A stretch of DNA of 64,000 nucleotides from an uncultured Actinomycetes bacterium (GCA_963709345.1 CAVPVX010000011.1:192001-256000), one strand, 5' to 3'; counted from the first letter of the stretch, positions 2 to 16,125 are shown. Notes: a model not told the origin generated them from the sequence alone. A program made the numbers and translations.

Positions 2-91
2 ATCATCGCCGCGGTGTACGTGGTCGCCAACCTGACGGCCGACATCCTCACGATCCTCGTCAGCCCACGACTCAGGACGGGCCTGCGATGA
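2..91 (+). CDS. ABC peptide/nickel-type permease (DppB/OppB-like), 3' end only
   Basis: Frame reads IIAAVYVVANLTADILTILVSPRLRTGLR*, the typical DppB C-terminus; its TGA overlaps the next ATG (ATGA). Confidence 0.85.
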   Translation: MIAAVYVVANLTADILTILVSPRLRTGLR

Positions 92-1011
92 GCACTCCAG
101 AGATGAGAGTGACCGACTCGGAGCTCGTCGAGCCGCCGGTCGTGCACGCCGACAACCGGCCCTCCGAGTGGCTCATGATGCTGCGCGAGGCGTGGCGCAT
201 GGGCCGCACCAAGATCGGCGTCGGCATCTTCGCGATCATCGTCCTCATCGCCGTCGTCGGCCCGTGGGTGGCGCCGTACTCGCCCACCGAGTTCGTCGCG
301 CCGCCGTTCTCGCCGCCCGAAGTCTCCAAGATGTGGCTGGGCAGCGACTACATCGGCCACGATGTGCTCACGCGCGTGCTCTACGGCGGCCGTACCGTCA
401 TCCTGCTCGCCCTCGCGGCCACGGTCATCGGCCTCGTCCTGGGCGTGACCCTGGGACTTGTCACCGGCTACGCGCGGCGCTGGATCGACGAGTCGATCAT
501 GCGCATCCTGGACGTCGTCCTCGCGTTCCCGCAGATCGTGCTCGCGCTGCTCTTCGTTTCGATCCTTGGGCCGAGGCTCTGGCTCATCGTGCTCATCGTC
601 GGCATTTCGCACGCGCCGCGCATCGCGCGCGTCGCGCGGGCTGCCACGCTCGAGGTCTCGCAGCGCGACTTCGTGCTCGCCGCCGAGGCCTTCGGCATCG
701 CGCGCTGGAAGATCCTCTTCAACGAGATCCTGCCGAGCATCACCAGCCCGCTGCTGGTCGAGTTCGGCCTGCGCCTCACCTACTCGATCGGTGTCATCGC
801 CGCGCTGTCGTTCCTCGGCTTCGGCATGCAGCCGCCGGCGGCCGACTGGGGCCTGATGATCAACGAGAACCGCATCGGCCTCATCATCCAGCCGTGGCCG
901 GTCGCGGTCCCCGTGATACTCATCGGCATCCTGACGATCGGCACCAACCTGATCGCGGACGGCCTCGGCCGCTCCCTGATCGGCATCGAGCGCGACACGG
1001 GGGTAGGGTGA
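88..1011 (+). CDS. ABC peptide-type permease (DppC/OppC-like)
   Basis: WLGSDYIGHDVLTRVLYGGR, EAA-type loop, ALSFLGFGMQPPAADWGLMI. Confidence 0.93.
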   Translation: MSTPEMRVTDSELVEPPVVHADNRPSEWLMMLREAWRMGRTKIGVGIFAIIVLIAVVGPWVAPYSPTEFVAPPFSPPEVSKMWLGSDYIGHDVLTRVLYGGRTVILLALAATVIGLVLGVTLGLVTGYARRWIDESIMRILDVVLAFPQIVLALLFVSILGPRLWLIVLIVGISHAPRIARVARAATLEVSQRDFVLAAEAFGIARWKILFNEILPSITSPLLVEFGLRLTYSIGVIAALSFLGFGMQPPAADWGLMINENRIGLIIQPWPVAVPVILIGILTIGTNLIADGLGRSLIGIERDTGVG

Positions 1012-2831
1012 TGGAGACCGCTACTGAGAACACCGCTGCTGCTCCGGAGCTCGAGGCCGTCCTCAAGGTCGAGGGACTGCGCATCGTCCTCGACCCCTCG
1101 GGCGTCGACATCGACGACGACATCTCGCTGGCGATCCACCGCGGCGAGGTTCTGGGGCTCGTCGGCGAGTCCGCGTCGGGCAAGACGACCGTCGGAACCA
1201 GCTTGCTCGATTACCAGCGCCGCGGCGCCAAGATCGCTGGGGGGCATGTCGAGATCGACGGCCGTGACATCCTTGCCATGGATCCCGGCACGTTGCGCAG
1301 CGTCCGCGGGGGGCAGATCAGCTATGTGCCCCAGGACTCCTCGGCGGCGCTGAACCCTGCGCTGCGCATCGGCACGCAGCTCATGGAGATCCTCGAGGTG
1401 CACGGCTTCGGCTCGTCGTCGGCGGACCGTGACGCCCGCCTTGCTCAGATGATGTCGGAGGTGCTGCTGCCGTCGGACAAGCAGTTCCTCCGCCGGTACC
1501 CGCATCAGCTCTCCGGCGGCCAGCAGCAGCGGGTCGCCATCGCCATGGCGTTCGCCAACCGGCCCAAGGTCATCGTCCTCGACGAGCCGACCACCGCCCT
1601 CGACGTGACCACCCAGGCGCACGTGCTCGACACCGTGCGCGACCTCACCAAGTCGTACGGGGTCGCGGCGCTGTACATCACCCACGACCTCGCCGTGGTC
1701 TCCAACCTCGCCGACCGCATCGCCGTCATGTACGCCGGCAGGGTGGTCGAGACGGGCACGCGCGACGAGCTGTTCGACCAGGGGCACCACCCGTACACGC
1801 GCAAGCTGCTCGCCTCGATCCCCGACATCACCGGGGAGCGCGCTCTGCGCGGCATACCCGGCTGGGCCCCCCGTCCGGGACAGCGACCCAGCGGCTGTTC
1901 CTTCACGCCGCGCTGCGACTGGGCGGTCGACAAGTGCGGGGAGCAGTTCCCGCCGGTTGAGCAGGTGAGCCCGGGGCACAACGTTCGCTGCTGGCGCTAC
2001 ACGGAGGTCGGCGCGCAGACGGCCGTGCTCGACGTCCAATTGCGCGACAAGTCGCTCTCCGCTCGTGAGACGCCGGACAAGCAGGTCATCAGCGTGCGCG
2101 ACGTGACGGCTTACTACCAGCACAAGGAGACGCTGCACGACATAAGTGCCAGTCTCAGCGAGCGCCGCTGCCTGTCGCTCGTCGGCGAGTCGGGGTCCGG
2201 CAAGACGACCTTGGCGCGCTGCATCGCCGGCCTGCACCGGCACAAGATCGTCGGCGACATCGACTTCATGGGCAAGCCCCTGGTGCGCGACGCGCGCCGC
2301 CGGCCGCGTGCGACCCGGCAGTCGATCCAGTACATCTTCCAGAGCCCCTACAGCTCGCTCAACCCGCGCAAGACGATCGCCCAGATCCTCTCGCAGCCGC
2401 TGAAGGTCTTCTTCGACCTCTCGCGCGACGAGATGGAGGATCGGATGGTGAAGGCGCTCGAGCAGGTGGCGCTCGACTCCTCTCTGCTGAGCCGCTACCC
2501 GGACCAGCTCTCCGGCGGCGAGCGCCAGCGTTTGGCCATCGCCCGCAGCCTGGCAGCCGAGCCCACGGTGCTGATCTGCGATGAGGTGACCTCGTGGCTG
2601 GACGTCTCCGTGCAGGCGGCGATCATCGAGCTGCTGGCGGCGCTGCAGCGCGACATGGGTCTCTCGATGCTGTTCGTGACCCACAACCTGGCGCTGGTGC
2701 GCAGCATCTCGCAGGAGGTCGCGGTGATGAACGAGGGCCGCATCGTCGAGTACGGGCTCGTCGACGCGGTGCTCGAAGACCCGCAGGCTGACTACACCAG
2801 GAAACTGCTGTCGGACACACCGACGGTGTAG
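1011..2831 (+). CDS. ABC peptide-type ATP-binding protein with two fused ATPase domains (DppD/F)
   Basis: ATG at 1011 overlaps the upstream stop; two Walker A motifs (GESASGKT, GESGSGKT), two LSGG signatures, Cys-rich oligopeptide-ABC segment. Confidence 0.93.
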   Translation: METATENTAAAPELEAVLKVEGLRIVLDPSGVDIDDDISLAIHRGEVLGLVGESASGKTTVGTSLLDYQRRGAKIAGGHVEIDGRDILAMDPGTLRSVRGGQISYVPQDSSAALNPALRIGTQLMEILEVHGFGSSSADRDARLAQMMSEVLLPSDKQFLRRYPHQLSGGQQQRVAIAMAFANRPKVIVLDEPTTALDVTTQAHVLDTVRDLTKSYGVAALYITHDLAVVSNLADRIAVMYAGRVVETGTRDELFDQGHHPYTRKLLASIPDITGERALRGIPGWAPRPGQRPSGCSFTPRCDWAVDKCGEQFPPVEQVSPGHNVRCWRYTEVGAQTAVLDVQLRDKSLSARETPDKQVISVRDVTAYYQHKETLHDISASLSERRCLSLVGESGSGKTTLARCIAGLHRHKIVGDIDFMGKPLVRDARRRPRATRQSIQYIFQSPYSSLNPRKTIAQILSQPLKVFFDLSRDEMEDRMVKALEQVALDSSLLSRYPDQLSGGERQRLAIARSLAAEPTVLICDEVTSWLDVSVQAAIIELLAALQRDMGLSMLFVTHNLALVRSISQEVAVMNEGRIVEYGLVDAVLEDPQADYTRKLLSDTPTV

Positions 2832-2843
2832 GTGGGCTCGGCG

Positions 2844-2869
2844 GGCGGGCGGACGCAACTCCGCCCGCC
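2844..2869 (+). terminator. GC-rich hairpin after the ABC operon
   Basis: GGCGGGCGGA-CGCAAC-TCCGCCCGCC; no clear U-tract. Confidence 0.4.
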
Positions 2870-2996
2870 GCCGGATCGCCTTCTCTCGTCGCACCCTGCC
2901 GCCGGTCGTGCCGGCTTCGCGGCTCCTCCGGCGCACGGAGTCCTACAGCGATCGGACCAACGGAATCGACCCAAGCATGAAGATCGGAGGAGGCCC

Positions 2997-4448
2997 GTGC
3001 GTGCGCACATGACCTGGCTGGACGAGACCGAGAAGCGGTCGTTCGTCGAAGAGGCGCTGGGCATCCTCGAGCGCGTGGGCGTCGAGCTCAAGGGGTCGGC
3101 GGCGCTGACCGTCCTCGCGGACCTCGGGGCGGACGTCGATCTCGCCACCGGGATCGTGCGTTTTCCGCCCGACCTGGTGCTGCGCGCCGTCGAGGCGTGC
3201 CCGCGCCGGGTGCTCTTCGCCGGGTCGTCGCCCGAGCACGACGTGGCGCTGGACGAGGGAGAGCCGGCGCACTTCTGCTCGTCGGGCTGCGCCGCGTTCG
3301 TGCTCGACCACGAGACGGGCAGCAGGCGTCCCTCGACGCTGACCGACCTGCAGGCGGCGACGATCCTGCTCGACGAAGTTCCCGAAGTCGACGTCCTGTG
3401 GACGACGATCACGGCCGGCGACGTGCCGGTCGAGATCCGCGAGCTGGTCGTCTGCTACGTGGTGCTCACCGAGACGCGCAAGCACGTCACGCTCGTCGAC
3501 AGCCCCTCGCAAGCCGAGCCGTTGCTGCGCATCATGGACGTGGTCTCGGGAGACGCCGAGGCGTTCCGGGAGCGGCCGCGGTTCAGCACGCTGCTCACCG
3601 CGGCGTCTCCGCTCCGCATCGACGGGCCGCTTCTCGACTTCCACGCGGCCACGGCGCGGCGCGGGGCGCCCGTCGAGGTCTACACAGTGCCCATGGCTGG
3701 AGCCACGTCGCCGGTGACGCCGGCCGGGACCGTCGTGCAGGGTCTGGCCGAGTTCCTGGCGATCGCGACCGCCCTGCAGGCGCTGGCTCCGGGGGCCCGG
3801 GTCGTCATGGGAGTCTCGGGCTCCATCATGGACATGCGTTCCGCGGGGGTCTCGTACGCAGCGCCGGAATGCACGCTGATGAACGTCGCCTGCGTGGAGC
3901 TCGCGCATCACCTGGGAGTGCCTGCGGCCGTTCCGGGCCTCGCGACCGACGCCAAGTACGCCGGCGTGCAGGCGGGGTATGAGAAGGCGCTCAAAGGCCT
4001 CGCGACGGCCGGCGTGGGCGCCGACGTGCTGAGCGGCGGCGTGGGCATGATCGACTCGGTCAACACGCTGTTCCTGCCCCAGATCGTCCTGGACGCGGAG
4101 GTGGCCGGAATGATCCGCCGCGTGCTCGGCGACGTCGCCACCGGGCGCGACGACATGATGGTGGAGATGATCGAGCGGGTGGGCATCGGCGGCGACTTTC
4201 TCAAGGAGAAGGAGACCGCCCGGCGGCTGCGCGCCGGCGAGCACTTCGCCCCCGCGATCTCGTCACGCCAGGCCTACGACCAGTGGGTCGGCGACGGGCG
4301 CGACGAGGTGGCTCGGGCGAGGGAGCGCATGGATGCGCTCTTCGCCGCCCGGGCCGAGCGCGGCCGGATGCTCCATGAGGAGACCCGGGCCGAGCTCGCC
4401 GCCGTCTGCGGGGTGACCGCGGAGATGGAGCTCGCGCTCGGCCACTGA
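2997..4448 (+). CDS. Trimethylamine:corrinoid methyltransferase (MttB) superfamily, non-pyrrolysine
   Basis: GTG after GGAGGAGG; SPL...MAGATSPVTPAGT, PGLATDAKYAGVQAGYEK, VGIGGDFL motifs; no in-frame amber codon. Confidence 0.9.
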   Translation: MRAHMTWLDETEKRSFVEEALGILERVGVELKGSAALTVLADLGADVDLATGIVRFPPDLVLRAVEACPRRVLFAGSSPEHDVALDEGEPAHFCSSGCAAFVLDHETGSRRPSTLTDLQAATILLDEVPEVDVLWTTITAGDVPVEIRELVVCYVVLTETRKHVTLVDSPSQAEPLLRIMDVVSGDAEAFRERPRFSTLLTAASPLRIDGPLLDFHAATARRGAPVEVYTVPMAGATSPVTPAGTVVQGLAEFLAIATALQALAPGARVVMGVSGSIMDMRSAGVSYAAPECTLMNVACVELAHHLGVPAAVPGLATDAKYAGVQAGYEKALKGLATAGVGADVLSGGVGMIDSVNTLFLPQIVLDAEVAGMIRRVLGDVATGRDDMMVEMIERVGIGGDFLKEKETARRLRAGEHFAPAISSRQAYDQWVGDGRDEVARARERMDALFAARAERGRMLHEETRAELAAVCGVTAEMELALGH

Positions 4449-4514
4449 CCGGCGGCATCCGCGTCGGCTCGGTGGACGCTGCCGGCGGGCGGCCGCGGCG
4501 CAGCGGGGACCATG

Positions 4515-4557
4515 TTGACACCTGGACGGGGAGCCCTTAGGTTTCCACCTGGGTGGA
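4515..4557 (+). promoter_or_regulatory. Sigma70-type promoter with an adjacent palindromic operator candidate
   Basis: TTGACA(4515)-N17-TAGGTT(4538), followed by TCCACC-TG-GGTGGA (4544-4557). Confidence 0.65.
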
Positions 4558-4579
4558 TACCGCAGGAGAGGAAGGAAGC

Positions 4580-5953
4580 ATGGCAGAGCAGGATCCGGCC
4601 GTGGCCGGGGGGGTCAAGGAGGAGTTTCTCGAGCAGCACCTCTGGCCGCCGTTCACGCAGATGCAGAACCTCAAGCCCATCGTGATGGAGCGAGCCGAGG
4701 GCGCGCTCGTCTGGGACAGCGACGGCAACGAGTACATCGACGCGTTCGCCAGCCTCTGGACGGTCAACGTTGGTCACGGCCGCACCGAGATCCACGACGC
4801 CATCAAGGCGCAGATGGAGAAGCTCTCCATCTACCACATCTTCCAGATCGCCAACGAGCCCGCGGTCAAGCTCGCGAACAAGGTCGCCCAACTGGCGCCC
4901 GGCGACCTCGACCACGTGTTCCTCACGCTCGGCGGCGGGGAGTCGGTCGAGACCGCCGTCAAGATGGTGCGCCAGTACTGGCGCAACAAGGGCAAGGGCA
5001 CCAAGTACATGGTCATGTTCCGCGACCGCTCGTACCACGGCACGACCATGACCAGCACCAGCGCCCAGGGCCTCACCGTGAACCGCGCCAAGTTCGAGCC
5101 CATGCTCCCGGGCTTCATCAAGCTCGGCGCTCCCTACTGCTACCGCTGTGCCTGGAACAAGACCTACGGTGAAGACTGCAAGATGGAGTGCGCGAAGCAG
5201 GTCGAGACGGAGATCGACTTCTACGGCCCCGAGAACGTCGGCACCATGCTCGGCGAGACCATGATCGGCACCGGCGGCGTGATCCCGCCGCCGCCGGAGT
5301 ACTGGCCGATGGTCAACGACATCTGCAGGGCGAACGACGTCCTCGTGATCAACGACGAGGTCATCACCGGCTTCGGTCGCAGCGGCACCTGGTTCGGCTT
5401 CGAGCAGTTCGGCTCGAACCCCGACCTCGTCACGCTCGCCAAGGGCCTCTCGAGCGGCTACCTGCCGCTCGGCGCGGTGCTCGCGCGCGACCACGTCTAC
5501 GAGGCGTTCCTCGGCGGCCCCGCCGAGGCGTTCATGAGCGGCGCCACCTACATGGGGCACCCACTGTGCTGCGCCGCCGGCGTCGCCAACCTCGAGATCA
5601 TCGAGCGCGAGAAGCTGGTCGAGCGCTGCGCCGAGGTGGGAGCGTATATGCAGGAGGGGCTCGCCACACTGCTCAAGCACCCCATCGTCGGCGACGTGCG
5701 CGGCGTCGGCCTCGTCGCCGGCATCGAGTACGTGCAGGACAAGGAGACGCGCGAGTGGTTCGCGCCGGCGCAGGGCGTCGCCGCCAAGATCCGCGACGAG
5801 GCCTTCAAGCGCGGCGTCTTCGTGCGTCTGCTGGGGGGCGGCCACGTGACCGCGGTCGCGCCGCCGTTCATCATCAGCAAGGAGCAGATCGACACCGTCG
5901 TCGGCGCCCTCGACGAGTCCATCGGCGTCGTCGAGAAGCAACTCGGTTACTGA
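4580..5953 (+). CDS. Class III PLP aminotransferase (omega-amine/putrescine:pyruvate-like)
   Basis: LWTVNVGHGR, GGESVETA, SYHGTT, DEVITGFGRSG, TLAKGLSSGYLPL with the PLP lysine. Confidence 0.93.
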   Translation: MAEQDPAVAGGVKEEFLEQHLWPPFTQMQNLKPIVMERAEGALVWDSDGNEYIDAFASLWTVNVGHGRTEIHDAIKAQMEKLSIYHIFQIANEPAVKLANKVAQLAPGDLDHVFLTLGGGESVETAVKMVRQYWRNKGKGTKYMVMFRDRSYHGTTMTSTSAQGLTVNRAKFEPMLPGFIKLGAPYCYRCAWNKTYGEDCKMECAKQVETEIDFYGPENVGTMLGETMIGTGGVIPPPPEYWPMVNDICRANDVLVINDEVITGFGRSGTWFGFEQFGSNPDLVTLAKGLSSGYLPLGAVLARDHVYEAFLGGPAEAFMSGATYMGHPLCCAAGVANLEIIEREKLVERCAEVGAYMQEGLATLLKHPIVGDVRGVGLVAGIEYVQDKETREWFAPAQGVAAKIRDEAFKRGVFVRLLGGGHVTAVAPPFIISKEQIDTVVGALDESIGVVEKQLGY

Positions 5954-5984
5954 CCGCTCACAGCGAACCGCAAGGAGCACGACA

Positions 5985-7004
5985 ATGGCAAAGCCCAGAG
6001 TAGGTGTGGTCGGCTACGGCGTCATCGGTCAGCGTCTGGCCGACGGCGTCGCCCTGCAGGAGGACATGGAGCTCGTCGGCGTCGTCGACGTGGCCCCGAC
6101 GCTCTCGACGAGGGCTCTCTGCGAGTCCGGCATGCCCTACGACCTGTACGTCGTCGAGGCGGGCCAGAAGGCCGCCTTCGACGCGGCCGGCATTCCCGTG
6201 AGCGGCACCATGGACGACCTGCTTGGCAAGGTCGACATCGTGCTCGACTCCTCGCCCGGCGGCGTCGGCCGCAAGAACAAGGAGCTCTACCAGGCGAAGG
6301 GCGTCAAGGCGATCTTCCAGGGCGGCGAGACGAACGACATCGTCGACGTCTTCTTCCACGGCTACGCCAATTACGAGAAGGGCGTCGGCAAGGACTACCT
6401 CAAGCTGACGAGCTGCAATACGACGGGCCTCATTCGCGCCGTCGACTGCCTCGACCGCGAGGTCGGCGTGGAGCGCGTGATCGTCACCATCGTGCGCCGC
6501 GTCGCCGACCCGGGCGACACGCACCGCGGCCTCGTCGACGTGGCCCAGGTGGAGCCGGTGCCGAACCATCAGGCGCTCGACCTCATGACGATCATGCCGC
6601 ACATCGAGGCCACCGGCCTGCTCGTGCACGTGCCGACCACGCACGGCCACATCATCAACGTCATCGCCACCACCAAGGGCGACATCAGCAAGGAGCGGGC
6701 GCTCGAGCTCTTCGAAGCCCACCCGCGCATCCGCAACGTCAAGATCGCCGACGGCTTCAACAGCAACTCGGCGCTCTTCCGCTACGCCCGTGAGCTCGGC
6801 AACAAGCGCGCCGACATGTACGACATCGCCGTGTTCGACGAGACCATCGCCAAGAGCGGCCGCGAGTTCATGTTCGCGATCAACATCCCGCAGGAGGCGG
6901 TCGTCATCCCCGAGACCGTCGACGGCATCCGCGCCGCGCTCTCCCTGCAGACCGACCGCCTTGAGGCCGTGGGCCTCACCAACACGTACCTCGGGCTCGC
7001 CTGA
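5985..7004 (+). CDS. Type II (archaeal-type) phosphorylating glyceraldehyde-3-phosphate dehydrogenase-like protein
   Basis: GYGVIGQRLADGVALQEDM, IFQGGE, catalytic SCNTTGL, RRVADP, QEAVVIPETVDGIRA. Confidence 0.9.
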   Translation: MAKPRVGVVGYGVIGQRLADGVALQEDMELVGVVDVAPTLSTRALCESGMPYDLYVVEAGQKAAFDAAGIPVSGTMDDLLGKVDIVLDSSPGGVGRKNKELYQAKGVKAIFQGGETNDIVDVFFHGYANYEKGVGKDYLKLTSCNTTGLIRAVDCLDREVGVERVIVTIVRRVADPGDTHRGLVDVAQVEPVPNHQALDLMTIMPHIEATGLLVHVPTTHGHIINVIATTKGDISKERALELFEAHPRIRNVKIADGFNSNSALFRYARELGNKRADMYDIAVFDETIAKSGREFMFAINIPQEAVVIPETVDGIRAALSLQTDRLEAVGLTNTYLGLA

Positions 7005-7052
7005 GCGGCACGGACTGACGGCACAAGCGGCTCGGGGAGGCGAGAGGCGCAG

Positions 7053-8303
7053 GTGAAGTACGGCATCCACACCCTGGATGACTTCGAGTGGGGCGGCAAG
7101 GTCGTGCTCTGCCGGGTCGACATCAACGCGCCGCTCGACCCCGAGACGGGGGGGCTGCGCGACGTCACCCGGCTGGAGGGTTGCGCGCCGACGGTCCGCG
7201 AGCTGGCGGAGGCCGGCGCCAGGGTCGTGCTCCTCGCCCACCAGGGCGGCGACCTCGAGTACCACAACTACGCGACGACCGAGAAGCACGCGCCGGTGGT
7301 GAGCGAGCTGACCAGGCGCCCCGTCGCCTTCATCGACGACGTCTGCGGGCCGGCCGCGCGCGAGGCCATCGGCCGGCTCGCGGACGGCGACGTCCTCCTG
7401 CTCGACAACGTGCGCTTCTGCGCCGAGGAGCTGACTCTCTTCGAGCGCAAACTCGACCTCTCGCCCGAGCAGCAGGCGAAGACGCTGGTGGTGCGCAAGC
7501 TGGCGCCGCTCGCCGACCTCTACGTGTGCGACGCATTTGCCGCCGCGCACCGCTCGCAGCCCACCCTGGTCGGCTTCGAGCAGCTCCTTCTGTCGGCCAT
7601 GGGCCGGCTTTTCGAGCGCGAGTACTCCAACCTTGCGCGTCTGCGCGCCGAGCCGGCGCGCCCGTGCGTGTTCGTGCTCGGCGGGACGAAGATCCAGGAG
7701 GCCTTCCCGATGATGGCAGCCGCTCTGCGCGACGGCATGGTCGACACCGTCCTCGCCGCCGGCGTCGTCGCGAACGTCATGCTCGCCGCCAAAGGCGTCG
7801 ACATAGGCGAGCCGTCCCTGGAGTTCATCAGGGCCGGCCAGCTGGAGAGGTTCATCGAGGAGTCGAAGGCGATCCTGGCCGATCACGGCGACAAGGTCGT
7901 GCTGCCCGCCGACGTCGCCTGCGTGAAGGCCGGCGGCCGCGTCGAGCTGGCGTCGGCCGATCTGCCCGTGGACGCGCAGCTCGTCGACATAGGCCACCGG
8001 GCCGTCGACGAGTACCGGCGGCGCATCGCCGCCGCCGGCACGGTGTTCGCCAACGGCCCGGCCGGCGTCTTCGAGCAGCCCGAGACCGAGTACGGCACGC
8101 GCTCGCTCTGGAAGGCGATGGCGACCACCGCCGGCTTCAGCGCCCTGGGCGGCGGCGACTCCGTCGCCGCCATGAACCGCTTCGGCCTCGCCGGCCGCTT
8201 CGACTACGTCTGCACGGCCGGCGGCGCCATGGTCCAGTTCCTCAGCGGCAAGCCGATGCCCGTGATCGAGGCGCTCAAGGCCTCGGCTGCGCGCTTCGCA
8301 TGA
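7053..8303 (+). CDS. Phosphoglycerate kinase-like protein (archaeal-like)
   Basis: RVDINAP, LLDNVRF, DAFAAAHRSQ, LGGTK, NGPAGVFE, GGGDS, TAGGA. Confidence 0.9.
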   Translation: MKYGIHTLDDFEWGGKVVLCRVDINAPLDPETGGLRDVTRLEGCAPTVRELAEAGARVVLLAHQGGDLEYHNYATTEKHAPVVSELTRRPVAFIDDVCGPAAREAIGRLADGDVLLLDNVRFCAEELTLFERKLDLSPEQQAKTLVVRKLAPLADLYVCDAFAAAHRSQPTLVGFEQLLLSAMGRLFEREYSNLARLRAEPARPCVFVLGGTKIQEAFPMMAAALRDGMVDTVLAAGVVANVMLAAKGVDIGEPSLEFIRAGQLERFIEESKAILADHGDKVVLPADVACVKAGGRVELASADLPVDAQLVDIGHRAVDEYRRRIAAAGTVFANGPAGVFEQPETEYGTRSLWKAMATTAGFSALGGGDSVAAMNRFGLAGRFDYVCTAGGAMVQFLSGKPMPVIEALKASAARFA

Positions 8304-9574
8304 AGCTGACGATCCCCTACGGCGACGGGGAACTGCCGTTCGAGTTGCCCGATGCCTGCCTGATGGACGTCGTACGCCCCGGCTGCGGCCTCGGGGAGGA
8401 GGCGGACCCGCCGACGGCGCCCTCCGCCGCCGAGGAGCAGGCGGAGATACGGCGTGCCCTGGCGGAGCCCGTCGGCACGCCGCCGCTCGCCGAGCTGGCG
8501 GCCGGGGCGGGCAGCGCGGCCGTCGTCGTCAGCGACGTCACGCGGCCATGCCCCTCGTATCGCTTTCTGCCGGCCCTGCTCGCCGAGCTGGCGCCGATCG
8601 CGCCGGAGCGCGTCAGCATCCTCTTCGCGCTCGGCGGTCATCGCGCCCACACGCACGAGGAGCAGGTGCGACTGGTCGGCGAGGAGGTGGCCGCGAGCGG
8701 CGTCCGCCTCCTCGACCTCGACCCGGCGCGCTGCGTGCCGGTCGGCACGACCTCGCGGGGCACGCGCCTCGAGGTCTTCAAGCCGTATCTGGACGCCGAC
8801 CTGCGCGTGTGCACCGGCAACATCGAGTACCACTACTTCGCCGGGTTCAGCGGCGGGGCCAAGGCCGTGGTGCCGGGTCTGTGCTCCTACGCCGCCATCA
8901 GCGACAACCACAGCATGATGCTGGCGCCGGCGGCGAGGGCCGGGGTCATGGACGGCAACCCGGTGCGCGAGGACATCGACGAGGCCGGCGGCATGATCGG
9001 CATCGACTCCATCTTCAACGTGCTGCTCGACGAGGACAAGCGCATCATCGGCGCTGTGGCCGGGCACCATCTGGAGGCTCACAGGGTGGGGGCGGCAGCG
9101 TACGACCGGCGCTGCGACCTGCGCATCCCCGCGCCTGCCGACATCGTGATCGCTTCGCCCGGGGGCAGACCCAAGGACATGAATCTCTACCAGGCGCAGA
9201 AGACGCTCGACAACGTGGGCGGCGCGGTCCGTGACGGAGGCGTCGTGATCCTCGTGGCGCGCTGCCGTGAGGGATTCGGTCAATCGGTCTTCGAGGATTG
9301 GATGCGCGGCATGGGCTCGCCGCAGGCGCTCATCGACAGGATCCGGGAGGAGTTCGTCCTCGGCGGCCACAAGGCGGCGGCGATCGCCGGGCTGCTCGCC
9401 CGGGCGCGCGTCTATCTGGTCTCGGAGTTCCCGGACGATGTGGTCGAGAGCATGTGCATGCGGCCCTTCGCCACCGTCGACGGCGCCGTGCGGGCCGCCC
9501 TTGCCGAGGTCGGCGCCGACGCTCGCAGCCTCGTCGTGCCGCACGGCAGCCGGGTCACGGCCGGGACCGCGTAG
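8300..9574 (+). CDS. larA: Nickel-pincer LarA-family 2-hydroxy acid racemase/epimerase
   Basis: ATGA-coupled to PGK; SDVTRP, GGHR, HYFAGFSGGAK, DNH, NLYQAQK catalytic and cofactor motifs. Confidence 0.9.
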   Translation: MKLTIPYGDGELPFELPDACLMDVVRPGCGLGEEADPPTAPSAAEEQAEIRRALAEPVGTPPLAELAAGAGSAAVVVSDVTRPCPSYRFLPALLAELAPIAPERVSILFALGGHRAHTHEEQVRLVGEEVAASGVRLLDLDPARCVPVGTTSRGTRLEVFKPYLDADLRVCTGNIEYHYFAGFSGGAKAVVPGLCSYAAISDNHSMMLAPAARAGVMDGNPVREDIDEAGGMIGIDSIFNVLLDEDKRIIGAVAGHHLEAHRVGAAAYDRRCDLRIPAPADIVIASPGGRPKDMNLYQAQKTLDNVGGAVRDGGVVILVARCREGFGQSVFEDWMRGMGSPQALIDRIREEFVLGGHKAAAIAGLLARARVYLVSEFPDDVVESMCMRPFATVDGAVRAALAEVGADARSLVVPHGSRVTAGTA

Positions 9575-9640
9575 TCGCGCCGGTGGAGCGGCCGGGCGCG
9601 GTGGCGCGCCCGTGCCGGCGCCCCGGGTCCGAGACGAGAA

Positions 9641-9678
9641 GAGAACGGCGGGCCGCCCTGCGGCGGCCCGCCGTTCTC
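9641..9678. terminator. Bidirectional hairpin between convergent operons
   Basis: GAGAACGGCGGGCCGCC-CTGC-GGCGGCCCGCCGTTCTC, perfect 17-bp stem. Confidence 0.75.
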
Positions 9679-9733
9679 CGCGTCTCCCCGGCGCTCGCGC
9701 GGGGAGGGCCTCGTCAGGACGACGGCGGGGACG

Positions 9734-10948
9734 TCACTTCGCCTTCGCCGCGGCCTTCTTCTCCTTGACCGGCTCGGTGCCGGGCTTGACGGCCATGTTG
9801 CGGTAGACCTGCTCCATGTCTTCGGCGGTGAACTTGCGCGGGTTGTTGTTCCAGAGCCGCGCCTGCGTGAGGGCGCCCTTGACCAGGTCCGGGATCGCCG
9901 ACTCGGGGATTCCGACCTCGTTCAGGTACTGCGGCACGCCGAGGTCGTCGGCCAGCGTGCGCAGCGCCTGCAGCGTGACCTCGCAACCCTCGCGGTCGCT
10001 CAGCCCTTCCATGTTCTCGCCCATGAGCTCGCCGATCTCGCGGAAGAACTGCGGGCAGGCCAGCATGTTGTACTCCATGACCCAGGGGAGCATGAGCGTG
10101 TTGGCGATGCCGTGCGGCACGTGGAACATGCCGCCGACCGGGTAGCTCATGGCGTGGACGGCGCCGACGCCGGCGTTGCCGAAGGCGATGCCGCCGAGCA
10201 GCGAGCCGATGGCCATGTTGTGGCGCGCCCAGGCGTTGGTCCCGTCGAAGACGGCGGTGCGGATGCTCTGGCTGATGAGCTTGATGCCCTCCGCGGCCAG
10301 CGGGTCGGTATGCATGGTGGCGTTGACCGAGATGTAGGCCTCGATGTTGTGGATGAGTGCGTCCATGCCGCTGGCGGCGGTGACGCCGGGCGGGCAGCTG
10401 TAGGTGAGCACGGGGTCGACCATGGCGATGTTGGGGATCAGGTGGGGGCTGACTACCCCCTGCTTCACATTGAGCTTCTCGTTGGCGAAGATGCCGATCG
10501 CGGTGACCTCGGTGCCCGTACCGGCCGTGGTCGGCACGGCGATGAACGGCAGCCCCTTCTTCGGCACCTGGTCGACGCCGACGTAGTCCTCGATGCGGTC
10601 GTCGGTGGGGGCGAGCACCGCGACCAGCTTGGCGACGTCGATGGCCGAGCCGCCGCCGAAGCCGACGATGAGGTCGTACTCGCCCTTCTTGGCGATGTCC
10701 ACGATCTTCTGGACGCTGCCCATGGGGGGCTCGGGGACGGCCTTGTCGCAGATGCCGACTTCCATACCCGCTTCACGCAGCGGGGCCTCGACGCTGTCCA
10801 CGGTGCCGCAGCAGGCCACGCCGGGGTCGGTGATGACGAGCACCTTGGTGGCGCGGAGCTTCTTCGCCTCGGCGCCGAGCTGCGCGACGCAACCGTTGCC
10901 GGTGATGAGCGTCTTGGGCGCCCGGTGGACGCGGATCTTGGTATCCAT
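9734..10948 (-). CDS. Iron-containing alcohol dehydrogenase (candidate 4-hydroxybutyrate dehydrogenase)
   Basis: GGGSAID, PTTAGTGTEVT, DALIHNIE, HAMSYPVGGMFHVPHG; substrate inferred from context. Confidence 0.9.
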   Translation of the reverse strand: MDTKIRVHRAPKTLITGNGCVAQLGAEAKKLRATKVLVITDPGVACCGTVDSVEAPLREAGMEVGICDKAVPEPPMGSVQKIVDIAKKGEYDLIVGFGGGSAIDVAKLVAVLAPTDDRIEDYVGVDQVPKKGLPFIAVPTTAGTGTEVTAIGIFANEKLNVKQGVVSPHLIPNIAMVDPVLTYSCPPGVTAASGMDALIHNIEAYISVNATMHTDPLAAEGIKLISQSIRTAVFDGTNAWARHNMAIGSLLGGIAFGNAGVGAVHAMSYPVGGMFHVPHGIANTLMLPWVMEYNMLACPQFFREIGELMGENMEGLSDREGCEVTLQALRTLADDLGVPQYLNEVGIPESAIPDLVKGALTQARLWNNNPRKFTAEDMEQVYRNMAVKPGTEPVKEKKAAAKAK

Positions 10949-10974
10949 GGCTCTTCTCTCCTCCGTTGTGACTG

Positions 10975-12285
10975 CTATCTCGTGAAGCGGCCGGGCCCGT
11001 AGACGGCGGCCGCCTCCTCGCGAATCTGGTCTCTGAATGCCGGGTCGGCGATCTCCAGCAGGGCTTCGGCACGCTGCCGCAGCCCCAGGCCGCGCAGGTG
11101 GGCGATGCCGTGCTCGGTGACGATGTAATCGACGTCGGCGCGCATCGTGGTGACGGCGGTGCCGGGGGCGAGGGCGGCGGCGATGCGCGACACCGTCCCC
11201 TTCTTCGCCGTGCTCGGCAGAGCGATGATCGCCTTGCCGTCGCGGCTGCGCGCGGCGCCGCGGACGAAGTCGACCTGGCCGCCGATGCCGGTGAACTGCG
11301 TCGCGCCCATCGTGTCGGCCACGACCTGCCCCATGACGTCGACCTGGAGGGCGGAGTTGATGGCGACGACGCGGTCGTTCTGGCCGATCAGGTACGGGTC
11401 GTTCGTGATGTTGACCGGGAACATGTTGACGGCCGGGTTGTCGTCGACGAAGTCGTAGAGACGGCGGGTCCCCATGAGGAAGGTCGCCGCTATCTTGTCG
11501 CGGTTGATCGCCTTGTTGCGGTTGGTGATCACGCCCTCGTTGTAGAGGTCGACGACGCCCTCGCTGAACATCTCGCTGTGGATGCCGAGGTCGTTCTTCT
11601 CGTGCAGGAAGGCGAGGACGGCGTCGGGGATCGCGCCGATACCGAGCTGCAGGCAGGCCCCGTCGTCGATGAGGCCGGCGATGTGCCTGCCGATGGCCTC
11701 TTCGACGGGGCCGATCCTGGGCGGCTGCAGTTCGATGATGTCCTGCTCCGTCTCGACGATGAAGTCGAGCTCGGAGACATGGATGAAGGAGTCGCCGTGG
11801 GTACGCGGCATCTTCGGGTTGACCTGCGCGACGACGGTCCGGGCGACCTGGGCCGCCGGCTTCGTGTAGTCCACGGAGATGCCGAAGGAGCAGAAGCCGT
11901 GCTTGTCCGGCGGCGAGACGTGGACGAGGACGACGTCCGGCGGCAGGTAGCCCTCGCAGAAGAGCCTGGGGATCTCGCTGAAGAAGACGGGGATGTAGTC
12001 GCCGCGGCCGTCCTTCACGGCTTCGCGTGAGGACGCGCCGACGAAGAGCGACTGGTGGAAGAAGGAGTCGGCGTACTCCGGCCGGCAGTACTCGCCGTTG
12101 CCCATCGCGACCATGTGGTTGATCTCGACGTTCTCGAGCTCGCCGGCCCGGGCGACCAGCGCGTCGACGAGCTCGAGCGGCTCGCCGCAGGCGTGCGCGA
12201 ACACGACGCGGTCGCCTGACCTCACGCACTGCATGGCCTCGGCGGCGGTGACGTGCTTGCCGGCGTAGTCGGTGTTCCAGTCCAT
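10975..12285 (-). CDS. Acetyl-CoA hydrolase/transferase family, 4-hydroxybutyrate CoA-transferase (Cat2/AbfT-like)
   Basis: LQLGIGAIPDAV, DLGIHSEM, GIGGQVDFVRGA, VTEHGIA. Confidence 0.9.
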   Translation of the reverse strand: MDWNTDYAGKHVTAAEAMQCVRSGDRVVFAHACGEPLELVDALVARAGELENVEINHMVAMGNGEYCRPEYADSFFHQSLFVGASSREAVKDGRGDYIPVFFSEIPRLFCEGYLPPDVVLVHVSPPDKHGFCSFGISVDYTKPAAQVARTVVAQVNPKMPRTHGDSFIHVSELDFIVETEQDIIELQPPRIGPVEEAIGRHIAGLIDDGACLQLGIGAIPDAVLAFLHEKNDLGIHSEMFSEGVVDLYNEGVITNRNKAINRDKIAATFLMGTRRLYDFVDDNPAVNMFPVNITNDPYLIGQNDRVVAINSALQVDVMGQVVADTMGATQFTGIGGQVDFVRGAARSRDGKAIIALPSTAKKGTVSRIAAALAPGTAVTTMRADVDYIVTEHGIAHLRGLGLRQRAEALLEIADPAFRDQIREEAAAVYGPGRFTR

Positions 12286-12287
12286 CT

Positions 12288-12584
12288 CTAGTGCTCCTTG
12301 AGCTTGCGCATGATGGCGGGCGCGAGCTCGTCCTGCGGCGTGGGAACGCCGTCGACGAGCTCGCCGGCGACGACCACCGCGGTGGGGTCGTCGCTGGTGA
12401 GCATCTGGTTCGACGCGCACGCGCGGGAGCAGCCGCTCAGGTGCACGGTCGCTCCCGGGCGTAGGTCCGGATCGTCGGCGGGCAGCTCGGCGGCGACTGC
12501 CGTGCGGTCGATCTGCGGGTTGCAGCCGCCGCAGTACGCGACCTTCACGCGCTTCCCGTCGTCCGCTGTGCCCTCGCCGGTCAT
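12288..12584 (-). CDS. Small Cys-rich hypothetical protein
   Basis: YCGGCNP and LSGCSRAC motifs; tightly packed between abfD and the CoA transferase. Confidence 0.75.
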   Translation of the reverse strand: MTGEGTADDGKRVKVAYCGGCNPQIDRTAVAAELPADDPDLRPGATVHLSGCSRACASNQMLTSDDPTAVVVAGELVDGVPTPQDELAPAIMRKLKEH

Positions 12585-12588
12585 CGAG

Positions 12589-14099
12589 TCAGTCGGCGGC
12601 CACCGCCGTGGGCCTCTTGATCCGCTCCTTGTCCCACGGCTTGCCGACCTCGGCGATGGCCTTGGCCAGCTCCTTCTTGTGGTTCAGGTTGGACTGGCGC
12701 GCGATCATGATGCGCTGCGCCTGCGGCGAGCCGGCGCCGTGCATGCTCTCGGTGAGGTAGCCCACGGCCGCCGCGCCCAGAGTGAGGTTCTCGACCAGGC
12801 GCAGTATCCGCATGCGGTCGATGGTCGGTCGTGTCGCAGTTGCGCCGACCAGGTACTTCTTCACGATGGGGCCGACCTTGGGGTCGGCCAGATCCTGGGC
12901 CGACGGCATCGTGACCATCAGGCCCCCGGCGATGTCCTGCGGCGAGGCGCGCGATCTCGTAGGGGAAGCGGGTCACGTTCTGCTTGTGACGTTGGCCAGC
13001 AGCAGGTCGATCTAGGTAGTTGCCGGCCGGCATCTTCCGCCCTCGGCTGAGCAGGCGATGCCGCAGGCGAACATCGTCTCGTTGAGGTGGGTCATCTCGA
13101 CGATCTTGTCCTTGATGTGCGCTGGCCTTGGCGACGCCGTTCATCTCGGCGGCGACGGCGGCCGCGCCGATGAGCACGTCGCCCACGCCGACCTTGCAGC
13201 CGCCGTAGCTCTGACCGGTGATAGCCGGCGAAGCGCTCGACCAGCGGACCGGCGAACTCGACCTCGCCGCACAGGAAGACGTGGTCCCATGGGACGAAGA
13301 CGTCCTCGAAGACCATCAGTGCTTCCTGCCCGCCGAAGTTGGACGTTGCCGATGTCGAGGTCGTTGCCCTCGAGCTTGCGCGTGTCGCAGGTCTGGCGGC
13401 CGTAGATGTAGGTACACGCCCTCGGCGTTCGCCGGGCAGGCGAAGCTGACGGCGTAGTCCTCGTCGCCCTCGCGCATGGCGATGGTCGGCATGACGACGA
13501 TCTCGTGCGAGTTGCAGGCGCCCGGTCTGGTGCGCCTTGGCGCCGCGCACGACGATGCCGTCGTCGCGCTTCTCGACGACGTGCAGGTACATGTCGGGGT
13601 CGGGCTGCTGGTGTGGCGGCAGGCTGCGGTCGCCCTTGGGGTCGGTCATGGCGCCGTCGGCGACGAGGTCGTTGTCCTGCAGGTACTGGACGTACCTCCG
13701 GAACCGCGCGTGATACTCCGTGCCCAGTTGGCCTGGTCGATCTCGTAGGTGACCGACCAGAGCGCGTTGAGGGCGTCCATGCCGACGCAGCGCTGGAAGC
13801 AGGAGCCGGTCTTCTGGCCCAGCAGCCGCAGCATCTTGACCTTGTTCAGCAGGTCGTCGGTGGACTGGTGCAGATTGGTGAACCGGTTGACCTTCTTGCC
13901 GGTCAGGTGGCTCGTCGCCAGCATGAGGTCTTCGTGCTCGGGCGTGCTGCGCCAGTTCGTAGGTCATGGCGATGCAGTTGATGCTGGGCCGTATGAGCGG
14001 GTGGTTGACGTAATCGTCGATCCGCTCGCCGAACAGATAGACCTGCAGGTGCAGGTCGGCGAGGCTCTGGATGAACTCCTCGGGTGTCTTGAGAGCCAT
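12589..14099 (-). CDS. abfD: 4-hydroxybutyryl-CoA dehydratase (HpaB-like fold), interrupted by several frameshifts
   Basis: Pieces in three frames: MALKTPEEF, GQKTGSCFQRCVGMDA, GAMTDPKGDRS, GAKAHQTG, FAGYHR, TESMHGAGSPQAQRI. Confidence 0.88.
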
Positions 14100-14281
14100 G
14101 CGGTGCACTCCTTCCTGGCGCCCTCGGGTGGTCGGGCGCTGCGCTGGCTTGCAGGCACGGGCGCGCGCATGGGCGGGAGCGCTCGCGCGTTGGTTCGCTC
14201 CGGCGGGGCGCGGACGGCTCGCGATCGACCGTGTGACGCTCGGCGCCCTCGTGGATTCAACTATAGGAGCGCCTCCGGCGT

Positions 14282-15994: not shown

Positions 15995-16125
15995 TCCGGC
16001 TGCATCGCGCAGCGGCGTTTTGCGGCGCTTCGCTCACGGGTACGTACCCAAGCGACGCCGGCCATGAATGACCCAGTACATCCCGTGGCGGGCCATCCCG
16101 CCGCAGGATGAAAGGAGCGGCAAGC

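Follow-up and report, generated by a model that had tools for sequence, protein, structure and literature searches.

Why would a bacterium that already carries a canonical gap-pgk-tpi operon keep a second, archaeal-type glyceraldehyde-3-phosphate dehydrogenase (GAPDH) and phosphoglycerate kinase (PGK) between an aminotransferase and a homologue of the nickel-pincer enzyme LarA? The four genes lie at 4580-9574 (+ strand) of a 64,000-nucleotide stretch of DNA from an uncultured Actinomycetes bacterium (CAVPVX010000011.1:192001-256000), here called the window, whose genome (G000) comprises 3.11 Mb in 11 contigs and is 98% complete. A first-pass annotation of the window had read them as a catabolic pathway that makes ATP from a non-phosphorylated 2-hydroxyaldehyde, with malic semialdehyde as the best-fitting candidate. 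The four genes were confirmed by family matches, and the analysis described here supports that interpretation and carries it beyond the single operon, to a cassette that is widespread and would have several feeders.

In the pathway that we propose, the omega-aminotransferase would turn a terminal amine, likely (R)-4-amino-3-hydroxybutyrate, into (R)-malic semialdehyde (3-hydroxy-4-oxobutanoate), which the type II GAPDH paralogue (GAPDH-II) would oxidise, probably with NAD+ and phosphate, to D-malyl 1-phosphate. The archaeal-type PGK paralogue would then move the acyl phosphate to ADP, yielding D-malate and ATP, and the LarA homologue would racemise D-malate to L-malate for entry into central metabolism. 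In other phyla the same aldehyde would arise by thiamine diphosphate (ThDP)-dependent cleavage, either by a split transketolase acting on 5-dehydro-2-deoxy-D-gluconate or by an acetoin-dehydrogenase-like complex. Steps two to four form a widespread bacterial cassette. All substrates and activities named here are predictions from sequence; we hold it likely that malic semialdehyde and D-malate are the general substrates of the GAPDH-II/PGK/LarA trunk, and we lean towards the view that the four steps work as stated in the window. Papers are cited by PMC number, from excerpts of their text.

The GAPDH and PGK of the window are extra copies in a four-gene row

Third-position G+C (GC3) marks a same-strand row of genes from the ABC permease through larA, in a region with a G+C content of 66-74% (Table 1). 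The aminotransferase and GAPDH genes are separated by 31 nt and the GAPDH and PGK genes by 48 nt, with a purine-rich ribosome-binding stretch in both gaps, and the aminotransferase ATG at 4580 is preceded by a AGGAGAGGAAGGAAGC stretch. The translational coupling of PGK and larA seen in the first-pass annotation fits the ATGA overlap at 8300-8303, where the PGK stop TGA (8301-8303) overlaps the larA ATG (8300-8302). The single promoter that had been placed upstream of the row fared less clearly: both hexamers are present at 4515-4543, but a sigma-70 consensus scan of 2700-10000 returned 0 sites, leaving this candidate unreported because its -10 hexamer TAGGTT matches 3/6 positions only, and a promoter here is plausible. 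At the other end of the row, the hairpin at 9641-9678 (-53.6 kcal/mol, z -5.57; equally good folds in 0/200 shuffles) is the likely terminator for both larA and the convergent iron-containing alcohol dehydrogenase (Fe-ADH) gene.

A canonical gap-pgk-tpi operon was found elsewhere in the genome (G000:C7:140889-143383; PGK 509 bits, GAPDH 226 bits), and the GAPDH and PGK of the window are therefore extra copies, not the sole gap and pgk genes. The reported lack of tpi, pgm and eno genes nearby held for all genes annotated between a point 16 kb before the window start and window position 16.5 kb.

The row is conserved in its lineage and the GAPDH-II/PGK pair across phyla

A profile of 16 close GAPDH-II homologues was searched against one-genome-per-species contigs, giving at least 598 pattern matches of which at least 584 encode a relative; the best 80 of these, with flanks of up to 10 kb, are the loci studied here. 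Across these 80 loci the GAPDH-II clade shows 66-96% identity to the window protein. Relatives at 83-96% identity come from Thermoleophilia and other Actinomycetota, and those at 66-75% from Bacillota, Chloroflexota, Atribacterota, Aminicenantes, Planctomycetota, Treponema and others; cultured Bacillota with the cassette include Clostridium magnum, C. peptidivorans, C. pascui, C. tanneri, C. ganghwense and Fonticella tunisiensis. By these identities the organism of the window most likely belongs to the Thermoleophilia. PGK lies at most 400 nt from GAPDH-II in 69/71 loci with at least 1.4 kb of downstream sequence (the exceptions being L073 and L079), and GAPDH-II-PGK, with or without LarA, recurs across many phyla.

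The linkage of all four genes, on which the earlier proposal hung, is likewise conserved. A lineage set was made of 18 loci whose GAPDH-II is 83-96% identical to that of the window (L021, from Chloroflexia, was excluded), and counts refer to the loci that reach far enough. An ortholog of the window aminotransferase (75-93% identity) was found directly upstream of GAPDH-II in 17/17 lineage loci, on the same strand and at a spacing of 20-180 nt (a figure of 324 nt for L028 reflects a partial GAPDH-II match), with PGK in 14/14 and LarA in 13/13; at L011 a malic enzyme gene follows LarA. Genes flanking the row were found less regularly: the MttB gene (at least 50% identity) in 11/14 loci, the ABC ATPase in 8/12, Fe-ADH in 7/12 and the CoA-transferase in 7/11. 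Outside the lineage, such class III aminotransferases as occur are unrelated ones (26-34% identity) at a distance of several kilobases.

A phosphate-binding arginine is missing from the linked PGK clade

The best solved relative of the window PGK is 2cun (284 bits), which we take to be the Pyrococcus horikoshii enzyme; the remaining PGK chains listed score at most 206 bits. An alignment and tree were built from 121 of the best 150 representatives at 50% identity (29 fell outside 370-445 aa), 59 GAPDH-II-linked PGKs (8/67 linked open reading frames (ORFs) fell outside 390-450 aa) and the canonical PGK of the genome. All 59 linked PGKs and 11 representatives formed one clade (support 0.995), outside which lay the other 110 representatives and the canonical PGK.

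In PGK the 3-phosphate is bound by Arg65, Arg122 and Arg170, which with His62 make up a basic patch, and the 2-OH by Asp23 and Asn25 (PMC7729029). The Arg65 equivalent is Arg in 104/111 sequences outside the clade and in 0/70 inside it (Gly 28, Asp 27, Ser 13); the window PGK has Gly66 at this position and retains His63, Arg121 and Arg167 of the basic patch. Within the clade the Arg65 loop carries an inserted Tyr (68/70) and Asn for Asp (64/70), and a Phe-Glu insertion follows the Arg122 motif. The equivalents of Asp23, Asn25, His62, Arg122 and Arg170 are conserved within the clade and outside it, as are those of Arg38 and Lys215, which serve the carboxyl and the transferred phosphate (Arg40 and Lys213 in the window), and the glycine motifs. 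A site that is short of one phosphate-binding arginine out of three would suit a singly charged carboxylate in place of the phosphate, and we propose that the window PGK is a D-malyl-phosphate:ADP phosphotransferase, catalysing the ATP-forming step.

Candidate GAPDH-PGK fusions were considered as evidence of coupling and rejected. P0005 (566 aa) joins GAPDH to a partial PGK domain and resembles a broken gene call, and P0131 and P0161 (795-797 aa) are tandem PGK-PGK proteins with two full PGK domains, which stand outside the tree owing to their length.

The type II GAPDH keeps its catalytic residues and differs at two binding positions

The window GAPDH passes the curated models NF003251 (387.8 bits, cut-off 185) and TIGR01546 (296.7 bits, cut-off 232.9), and its nearest solved relatives are four archaeal GAPDHs (206-247 bits). 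In the archaeal type II enzyme (M. fervidus numbering), the catalytic Cys140 and His219 are flanked by Ser139, Asn141 and Thr142, the substrate phosphate is bound by Arg167 and Arg168, and a second anion site is formed by Ser139, Asn141, Arg167, His193 and His194 (PMC12041015). The catalytic set of the window protein (Ser143, Cys144, Asn145, Thr146 and His222) was invariant in 16/16 clade members, and the substrate-phosphate arginines (Arg171 and Arg172 in the window) and His195 are kept. Two positions set the clade apart from the four archaeal structures: at the second anion site His194 is replaced by Gln (Gln196 in the window) in 16/16 clade members versus His in 4/4 structures, and the Lys linked to NADP+ preference is replaced by Asp in 16/16 versus Lys in 4/4. 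An acidic residue at the latter position usually goes with NAD+ use, and the exchange suits an oxidative, NAD+-dependent role. The protein is proposed to be an NAD-dependent phosphorylating malic semialdehyde dehydrogenase.

LarA and its alternates point to D-malate as the product

Among five models tried, the window LarA matched the LarAH6 malate racemase model best (458.4 bits), and its closest solved structure is the malate racemase Mar2 (340.7 bits). LarAH6 was also the best model for 10/10 LarAs from other loci, 2/10 of which pass its cut-off (those of C. magnum and a Lachnospiraceae genome), and it outscored the lactate and LarAH10 models in 11/11 LarA proteins tested. The residues of Mar2 proposed to face the substrate are Tyr172, Lys173, Gln293 and Lys351 (PMC7583248); the window LarA keeps the equivalents of Tyr172, Gln293 and Lys351 together with the cofactor ligands. 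A motif pair, HYF and GAK, was found in 32/40 cassette-linked LarA rows, including those that pass the curated model, and as these motifs are common to the window and iol-linked LarAs the two thus form one functional group. The genome encodes LarB (276 bits, cut-off 175), LarC (Pfam, 339 bits) and LarE (306 bits, cut-off 150), so the nickel-pincer cofactor can be made. We propose that the window LarA is a malate racemase converting D- to L-malate. Malate racemases are the largest group of the LarA superfamily, and their in vivo role is described as an open question (PMC7583248, PMC11770544).

The partners of the cassette were counted in the 39 loci that have 6 kb or more of sequence to either side, ignoring matches that cover less than half of the query. 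LarA was present in 23 of these well-flanked loci, malic enzyme in 10 and a TIGR02089-type (tartrate/D-malate) dehydrogenase, TTC, in 7, with at least one of the three in 30/39. Malic enzyme was always found alongside LarA (10/10) and TTC never (0/7). This is the pattern to expect of a cassette that delivers D-malate, for which there would be two ways out: racemisation followed by decarboxylation of the L-malate by malic enzyme, or direct decarboxylation by a D-malate dehydrogenase. The product of the cassette is thus probably D-malate. In Clostridium ganghwense (L085) an otherwise identical operon has TTC between iolD and iolE, without LarA and malic enzyme. TIGR02089 was the best model for 9/9 TTC-like proteins, 5/9 of which score over its cut-off. 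In the genome of the window, a malic enzyme homologue lies on contig C4.

In four Actinomycetota loci (L037, L039, L061 and L076) TTC-GAPDH-II-PGK is preceded by genuine purA and purB genes and, at a greater distance, by serA; the opposite strand carries a CoA-acylating methylmalonate-semialdehyde dehydrogenase and, in 3/4, also an unrelated class III aminotransferase.

In other phyla the cassette lies beside ThDP-dependent enzymes

To survey the neighbours, all ORFs of the loci were clustered and the cluster representatives scanned against families. LarA, malic enzyme and TTC recur beside the cassette, as do the N and C halves of a split transketolase, the inositol enzymes IolG, IolE, IolD and IolB, ribose-type sugar ABC transporters and LacI regulators, and another set of loci has acetoin/pyruvate-dehydrogenase-like E1 alpha/beta, E2 and E3 with lipoyl synthase. 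The operon of L038, L071 and L084 comprises genes for LacI, sugar ABC transporter, malic enzyme, GAPDH-II, PGK, both transketolase halves, IolB, IolD, IolE, IolG and LarA; those of L077, L078, L085, L043, L056 and L081 are alike, with malic enzyme and LarA variable. In these Clostridia-type loci IolG, IolE, IolD and IolB pass or approach curated models, no kinase or aldolase gene was found in any of the nine operons, and IolC scores over its curated cut-off in just 1/5 genomes with the iol/transketolase cassette.

IolG, IolE, IolD and IolB together yield 5-dehydro-2-deoxy-D-gluconate. Read from its keto end, this compound would have the D-threo configuration required of transketolase donors, and by established chemistry the fragment remaining after its cleavage would be OHC-CH(OH)-CH2-COO-, in which the hydroxyl is D-configured. 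Such a product would be the carboxylate analogue of D-glyceraldehyde 3-phosphate (G3P), and its oxidation would give D-malate. A route of this kind would account for every gene of the iol/transketolase operons, where the C4 fragment would otherwise find no enzyme.

The acetoin-dehydrogenase-like complex lies beside the cassette in L030, L031, L035, L040, L044, L047 and L051 (with lipoyl synthase also in L030, L035 and L040, and TTC in L030 and L035) and may be a second ThDP-dependent source, releasing the aldehyde next to a ketone. Clostridium magnum DSM 2767 has two GAPDH-II-PGK cassettes, one in the iol/transketolase operon (L038) and one, with its own LarA, that follows an E1/E2/E3 complex and malic enzyme (L040). 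A gene for Fe-ADH, 44% identical to the Fe-ADH of the window, stands directly upstream of GAPDH-II in L080, which suggests a third feeder. No iol pathway was found in the genome of the window.

In the window lineage the feeder is probably the aminotransferase

The best NCBIfam and Protein Data Bank (PDB) relatives of the window aminotransferase are omega-amine:pyruvate, putrescine and 4-aminobutyrate transaminases, and it reaches no NCBIfam equivalog cut-off. The sole simple amine that would be transaminated to malic semialdehyde is 4-amino-3-hydroxybutyrate, hence its most likely substrate, and (R)-4-amino-3-hydroxybutyrate shares the configuration of L-carnitine. In Acinetobacter, malic semialdehyde derived from L-carnitine is converted to D-malate, which is consumed by a decarboxylating dehydrogenase (PMC11353897). 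We infer both the amine and its carnitine origin.

The MttB-superfamily gene upstream of the row, which the first-pass annotation had named among the neighbours to check, is present in 11/14 related loci; it begins at the base directly after the stop codon of the ABC ATPase gene and is therefore part of the transporter operon, upstream of the 131-nt gap. That operon starts upstream of the window with a family-5 solute-binding protein followed by a permease, and an AsnC/Lrp regulator and an EamA transporter run divergently from it. The MttB gene matches no curated equivalog (TIGR02369 334.7 bits, cut-off 525); its nearest structures are 2qne (putative methyltransferase) and 9yce (glycine betaine methyltransferase), both at 171 bits. 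Its frame (2832-4448) is uninterrupted and has no in-frame amber codon, as in a non-pyrrolysine member. No corrinoid, activating or methyl-accepting partner was found beside it among the annotated genes from the AsnC regulator to larA, and the one corrinoid protein seen is encoded within the pyl region, at C11:17666-18316.

That region (G000:C11:12206-19304; L096:3206-10304) encodes a pyrrolysine system of PylB, PylD, split PylS and a pyl-type corrinoid protein. PylB is a partial match of 280 bits, and PylD (213 bits) and the N-terminal (123 bits) and C-terminal (318 bits) PylS subunits score over their cut-offs; aragorn predicted a tRNA with anticodon CUA at C11:14991-15063. Trimethylamine (MTTB) and dimethylamine (Dimeth_Pyl) methyltransferase genes, each with a single in-frame TAG at the expected pyrrolysine position, lie 9-12 kb upstream at G000:C11:180033-182931 (L086:4033-6931). 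The 3.1-Mb genome has 64 MTTB-family matches, nine with one in-frame TAG and four with one in-frame TGA, and these together with the pyrrolysine system thus mark the organism as a methylated-amine specialist. A methylated precursor of the transaminase substrate is plausible on this background, and the ABC transporter and MttB gene may point to an imported carnitine-type methylated amine. Members of the superfamily act on trimethylamine, L-carnitine or gamma-butyrobetaine (PMC8604678).

Several points weigh against this origin. With 64 MTTB matches in the genome, a chance adjacency of an MttB gene would not be rare, and 3/14 related loci lack the gene. The known MttB-family members remove, to our knowledge, a single methyl and do not yield a primary amine, so two further demethylations must be postulated between carnitine and 4-amino-3-hydroxybutyrate; nor do betaine importers usually have a binding protein of family 5. 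Of all parts of the proposal the carnitine origin is the weakest, and we regard it as doubtful.

Points against the proposal and competing explanations

The proposal for the trunk and its aminotransferase feeder must be weighed against the following. The window LarA falls below the curated LarAH6 cut-off (458.4 vs 500 bits), and in all cassette-linked LarAs Phe replaces the substrate-facing Lys173 of Mar2 (HYF in the window). TTC-like proteins score below the TTC cut-off in 4/9 cases, 5/9 also pass the 3-isopropylmalate dehydrogenase model, and the TTC genes of the four Actinomycetota loci mentioned above, beside purA, purB and serA, are possibly housekeeping neighbours. No malate gene was counted within 10 kb in 9/39 well-flanked loci, although two of the nine (L014 and L028) do have LarA, frameshifted and hidden by the coverage filter, and 14/39 loci have no match to a ThDP module or aminotransferase, a count made with an out-of-frame aminotransferase query (L009 has an adjacent one). 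PGK keeps two of its three phosphate-binding arginines plus His62 and GAPDH-II both arginines assigned to the phosphate of G3P; the sequence therefore allows phosphorylated, sulfonated or phosphonated substrates. Finally, the convergent genes downstream, which are 4-hydroxybutyrate-like, mean that the aminotransferase could serve 4-aminobutyrate (GABA) instead.

The retained residues bear first on the possibility that the chemistry is as proposed and the substrate another: sulfolactaldehyde, a phosphonate analogue, D-glyceraldehyde, lactaldehyde or tartronate semialdehyde. The distal anion site is only partly changed in both enzymes, the score and the Lys173 exchange of LarA leave room for another 2-hydroxy acid, LarA homologues are known to racemise many of these, glycerate included (PMC11770544), and genes of sulfate assimilation are found 5-9 kb before the window begins. 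Against this stands the company that the cassette keeps: it recurs with malic enzyme or a TTC-type dehydrogenase, none of the recurrent neighbours is labelled as a sulfoquinovose, sulfite or C-P lyase gene, and the iol genes predict a carboxylated C4 aldehyde. LarAH6 also beats the lactate and LarAH10 models throughout, and tartronate is achiral, so that a racemase would be needless. We consider another substrate unlikely. Lactaldehyde and sulfolactaldehyde, kept as alternatives in the first-pass annotation, fit the neighbouring genes worse, and its preference for a route from malic semialdehyde through D-malate to L-malate is supported by the LarAH6/Mar2 match, the malic enzyme/TTC pattern, the iol operons and the carnitine precedent.

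An ordinary second GAPDH/PGK would act on G3P and 1,3-bisphosphoglycerate, in catabolic G3P release or gluconeogenesis, with LarA and the aminotransferase unrelated. Both proteins do pass or match generic family models and keep their catalytic residues, both GAPDH-II arginines and the Arg122, Arg170 and His62 of PGK, and transketolase reactions involve G3P. Such a reading is nevertheless quite unlikely, as the genome already has gap-pgk-tpi, Arg65 is lost in 70/70 of the linked PGK clade and kept in 104/111 elsewhere, and G3P cannot arise by an aminotransferase from any common amine. It would also leave nothing to handle the C4 fragment in the iol/transketolase operons and would not explain the mutually exclusive occurrence of LarA plus malic enzyme versus TTC, and the GAPDH-II clade is tight and distinct from the four solved archaeal enzymes.

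The aminotransferase might instead belong with the convergent cluster, on a path from GABA through succinic semialdehyde, 4-hydroxybutyrate and its CoA ester to crotonyl-CoA, or serve some other amine, the cassette receiving its aldehyde from elsewhere. Fe-ADH, CoA-transferase and HpaB-family genes adjoin the operon, the first two recurring in related loci, the PDB relatives of the aminotransferase include 4-aminobutyrate transaminases, and the Fe-ADH placed directly upstream of GAPDH-II in L080 shows how an alcohol could feed the cassette. The position of the aminotransferase gene, directly upstream of GAPDH-II on the same strand in 17/17 loci, makes this improbable. Fe-ADH and CoA-transferase, moreover, are encoded on the other strand, beyond a strong hairpin, 5/12 and 4/11 loci respectively lack them, and the HpaB-family gene is frameshifted in the window.

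A reductive, biosynthetic operon running from L-malate through D-malate, D-malyl phosphate and malic semialdehyde to 4-amino-3-hydroxybutyrate, as precursor of a carnitine-like solute, is very improbable, for although archaeal type II GAPDH/PGK run gluconeogenically and all steps are in principle reversible, the NADP+-linked Lys is Asp in 16/16 clade members, the cassette elsewhere sits within catabolic operons with LacI regulators, importers and iol genes, and an importer and a demethylase-type MttB gene precede it in the window.

Comparison with known systems

The malic semialdehyde pathway proposed here has likenesses in several described systems. With archaeal type II GAPDH and PGK it shares the protein families and the proposed chemistry (thiohemiacetal oxidation, phosphorolysis and phosphoryl transfer to ADP); conserved, too, are the catalytic Cys and His and both substrate arginines on the GAPDH side and, on the PGK side, the residues that bind the 2-OH and the carboxyl. 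The window pair differs in being extra copies of a separate bacterial clade, in a PGK without the Arg65 equivalent and with a Tyr-containing insertion, in a GAPDH with Gln for His194 and Asp for the NADP-linked Lys, and in a proposed substrate with a carboxylate in place of the phosphate ester.

The L-carnitine pathway of Acinetobacter baumannii (PMC11353897) has the intermediates that we propose, malic semialdehyde and then D-malate, and leaves D-malate by a decarboxylating dehydrogenase, as the TTC family may do in many cassette loci. There the CntA/B oxygenase cleaves the C-N bond and releases trimethylamine, and a dehydrogenase with catalytic Cys290 and Glu256 uses NAD(P)+ (PMC11353897); on our own reading of the excerpts this malic semialdehyde dehydrogenase is of the aldehyde dehydrogenase type, with no energy conserved. 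In the window, by contrast, we propose a phosphorylating GAPDH-type enzyme with a kinase, and so a gain of ATP, transamination in place of oxygenolysis, and a racemase as exit.

Mar2/LarAH6 of Thermoanaerobacterium thermosaccharolyticum (PMC7583248) provides the closest structure and best family model for the window LarA, with equivalents of Tyr172, Gln293 and Lys351, from which the window protein departs in its score under the cut-off and in the Phe at Lys173 common to all cassette-linked LarAs. In the excerpts of the main text of the two LarA papers (PMC7583248, PMC11770544) there is no mention of GAPDH, PGK, transketolase or inositol. Of canonical myo-inositol catabolism (IolG, E, D, B, C, J and A), the Clostridia-type loci retain IolG, IolE, IolD and IolB, and swap the IolC kinase and IolJ aldolase for a split transketolase and GAPDH-II, PGK, LarA and malic enzyme.

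Malyl phosphate and malate semialdehyde are also intermediates of a synthetic route to 2,4-dihydroxybutyrate (PMC5481828, PMC12104201), which is man-made and reductive (PMC5481828). The MttB-superfamily gene of the window belongs to the superfamily of the quaternary amine methyltransferases MtgB, MtcB and MtyB (PMC8604678), has no in-frame amber codon and is distant from the solved members of the superfamily (171 bits). A further difference marks off the window proposal: the synthetic malyl-phosphate route reportedly activates the other carboxyl (C4), via an engineered aspartate kinase and aspartate-semialdehyde dehydrogenase.

In the open-access literature searched (subscription journals and supplements lay outside it) we found no natural phosphorylating malate semialdehyde dehydrogenase, no transketolase-dependent inositol route ending in malate, no link of malate racemases to inositol or transketolase, no physiological role for malate racemases and no bacterial catabolism of 4-amino-3-hydroxybutyrate. 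A paper on inositol use in Dysosmobacter describes an aldolase route, with malate, GAPDH and PGK unmentioned. An ATP-yielding malic semialdehyde route thus seems not to have been described before.

If true, the proposal would be a rare case in which both enzymes of glycolytic substrate-level phosphorylation were recruited jointly to a non-phosphorylated substrate, and it would add one more ATP-conserving aldehyde oxidation to the short list of those available to fermenters. It would explain the commonness of malate racemases by giving them their missing physiological role. Clostridia, Lachnospiraceae and further anaerobes would then have a myo-inositol route that has gone unrecognised, and carnitine-type compounds a fate in soil actinobacteria that avoids trimethylamine. 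In hundreds of genomes these genes go under the plain labels GAPDH and PGK, which makes glycolysis look more redundant than it should in metabolic models. In its broadest form the idea is of a 'malate-semialdehyde trunk', a widespread and undescribed couple of archaeal-type GAPDH and PGK, followed by malate racemase or D-malate dehydrogenase and yielding one ATP per C4 aldehyde, which would underlie a transketolase-dependent anaerobic fermentation of myo-inositol that needs neither kinase nor aldolase. In a pyrrolysine-decoding member of the Thermoleophilia with dozens of MttB paralogues it would also be where carnitine ends up once corrinoid-dependent enzymes have demethylated it fully to 4-amino-3-hydroxybutyrate, no trimethylamine being released; taken whole, this is a tentative picture that we would not expect to hold in every part.

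Other features of the window and its surroundings

Table 1. Features of the gene row and its flanks, in window positions unless a contig is given
Feature	Position	Strand	Basis or remark
Solute-binding protein (family 5) and first permease	G000:C11:189254-192091		Just upstream of window; SBP_bac_5 match at L086:13254-14939
ABC transporter permease, second of two	55..1011	+	GC3 coding frame; label from position
Fused double ABC ATPase, Opp/Dpp type	996..2831	+	Pfam ABC_tran in two stretches and oligo_HPY; start estimated, GC3 frame
MttB superfamily gene, non-pyrrolysine	2832..4448	+	Pfam MTTB 255.6 bits; putative corrinoid-dependent methylamine/quaternary-amine methyltransferase
Promoter-like TTGACA (4515-4520), 17 nt, TAGGTT (4538-4543)	4515..4543	+	In 131-nt gap before aminotransferase gene
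Class III (omega) aminotransferase	4580..5953	+	Aminotran_3 323 bits; ORF 4553-5953
Type II (archaeal-type) GAPDH paralogue	5985..7004	+	NF003251 387.8 bits
Archaeal-type PGK paralogue	7053..8303	+	Pfam PGK 340.5 bits
LarA homologue, nickel-pincer enzyme	8300..9574	+	Lar_N 186 bits and LarA_C 77 bits
Hairpin, 17-bp perfect stem	9641..9678	.	Between convergent larA and Fe-ADH genes
Fe-ADH, lactaldehyde reductase/4-hydroxybutyrate dehydrogenase-like	9734..10996	-	Fe-ADH and ADH_Fe_C matches; NCBIfam list
CoA-transferase, butyryl-CoA:acetate/4-hydroxybutyrate type	10975..12318	-	TIGR03948 321 bits, below cut-off
HpaB-family gene, several frameshifts in assembly	12589..14100	-	HpaB_N and HpaB matches on two ORF pieces

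The three convergent genes downstream of the hairpin resemble the 4-hydroxybutyrate branch of GABA fermentation, the HpaB family being one that, we assume, includes 4-hydroxybutyryl-CoA dehydratase. They may handle GABA derived from gamma-butyrobetaine, or a reduced fate of the same aldehyde. When the intact L008 ortholog was aligned by tblastn to the HpaB-family gene of the window, the match switched among three frames, indicating that it is a pseudogene or that the assembly has introduced indel errors; genes in L007, L009, L014 and L028 are interrupted in a similar way.

No public sequencing run contained more than 0.22 of the words sampled from the stretch. Contigs of a soil metatranscriptome (X20) and of a run labelled as cDNA (X19) match parts of it at 88-99%, and were set aside as evidence of expression: they come from relatives, may be DNA, and show neither a transcript nor its ends. 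DNA contigs of X4 and X1 span MttB-aminotransferase-GAPDH, GAPDH-PGK and PGK-LarA in relatives at about 95% identity, repeating the synteny only.

Between the pyrrolysine-type methyltransferase genes and the transporter operon, at G000:C11:183273-187104 (L086:7273-11104), lie genes for a sulfotransferase-domain protein, an ATP sulfurylase and a SulP/STAS sulfate permease. A tRNA-Sec was predicted at C1:120215-120312, and the in-frame TGA of the four MTTB matches could be selenocysteine, a frameshift or an error. Further downstream in the window, at 14633-16467 (+), an NADP-type glutamate dehydrogenase gene (741 bits, over its cut-off) is followed by that of a P-II nitrogen regulator; glutamate dehydrogenase is downstream too in the related loci L007-L010, L016, L018, L019 and L028, and could recycle the amino-group acceptor.

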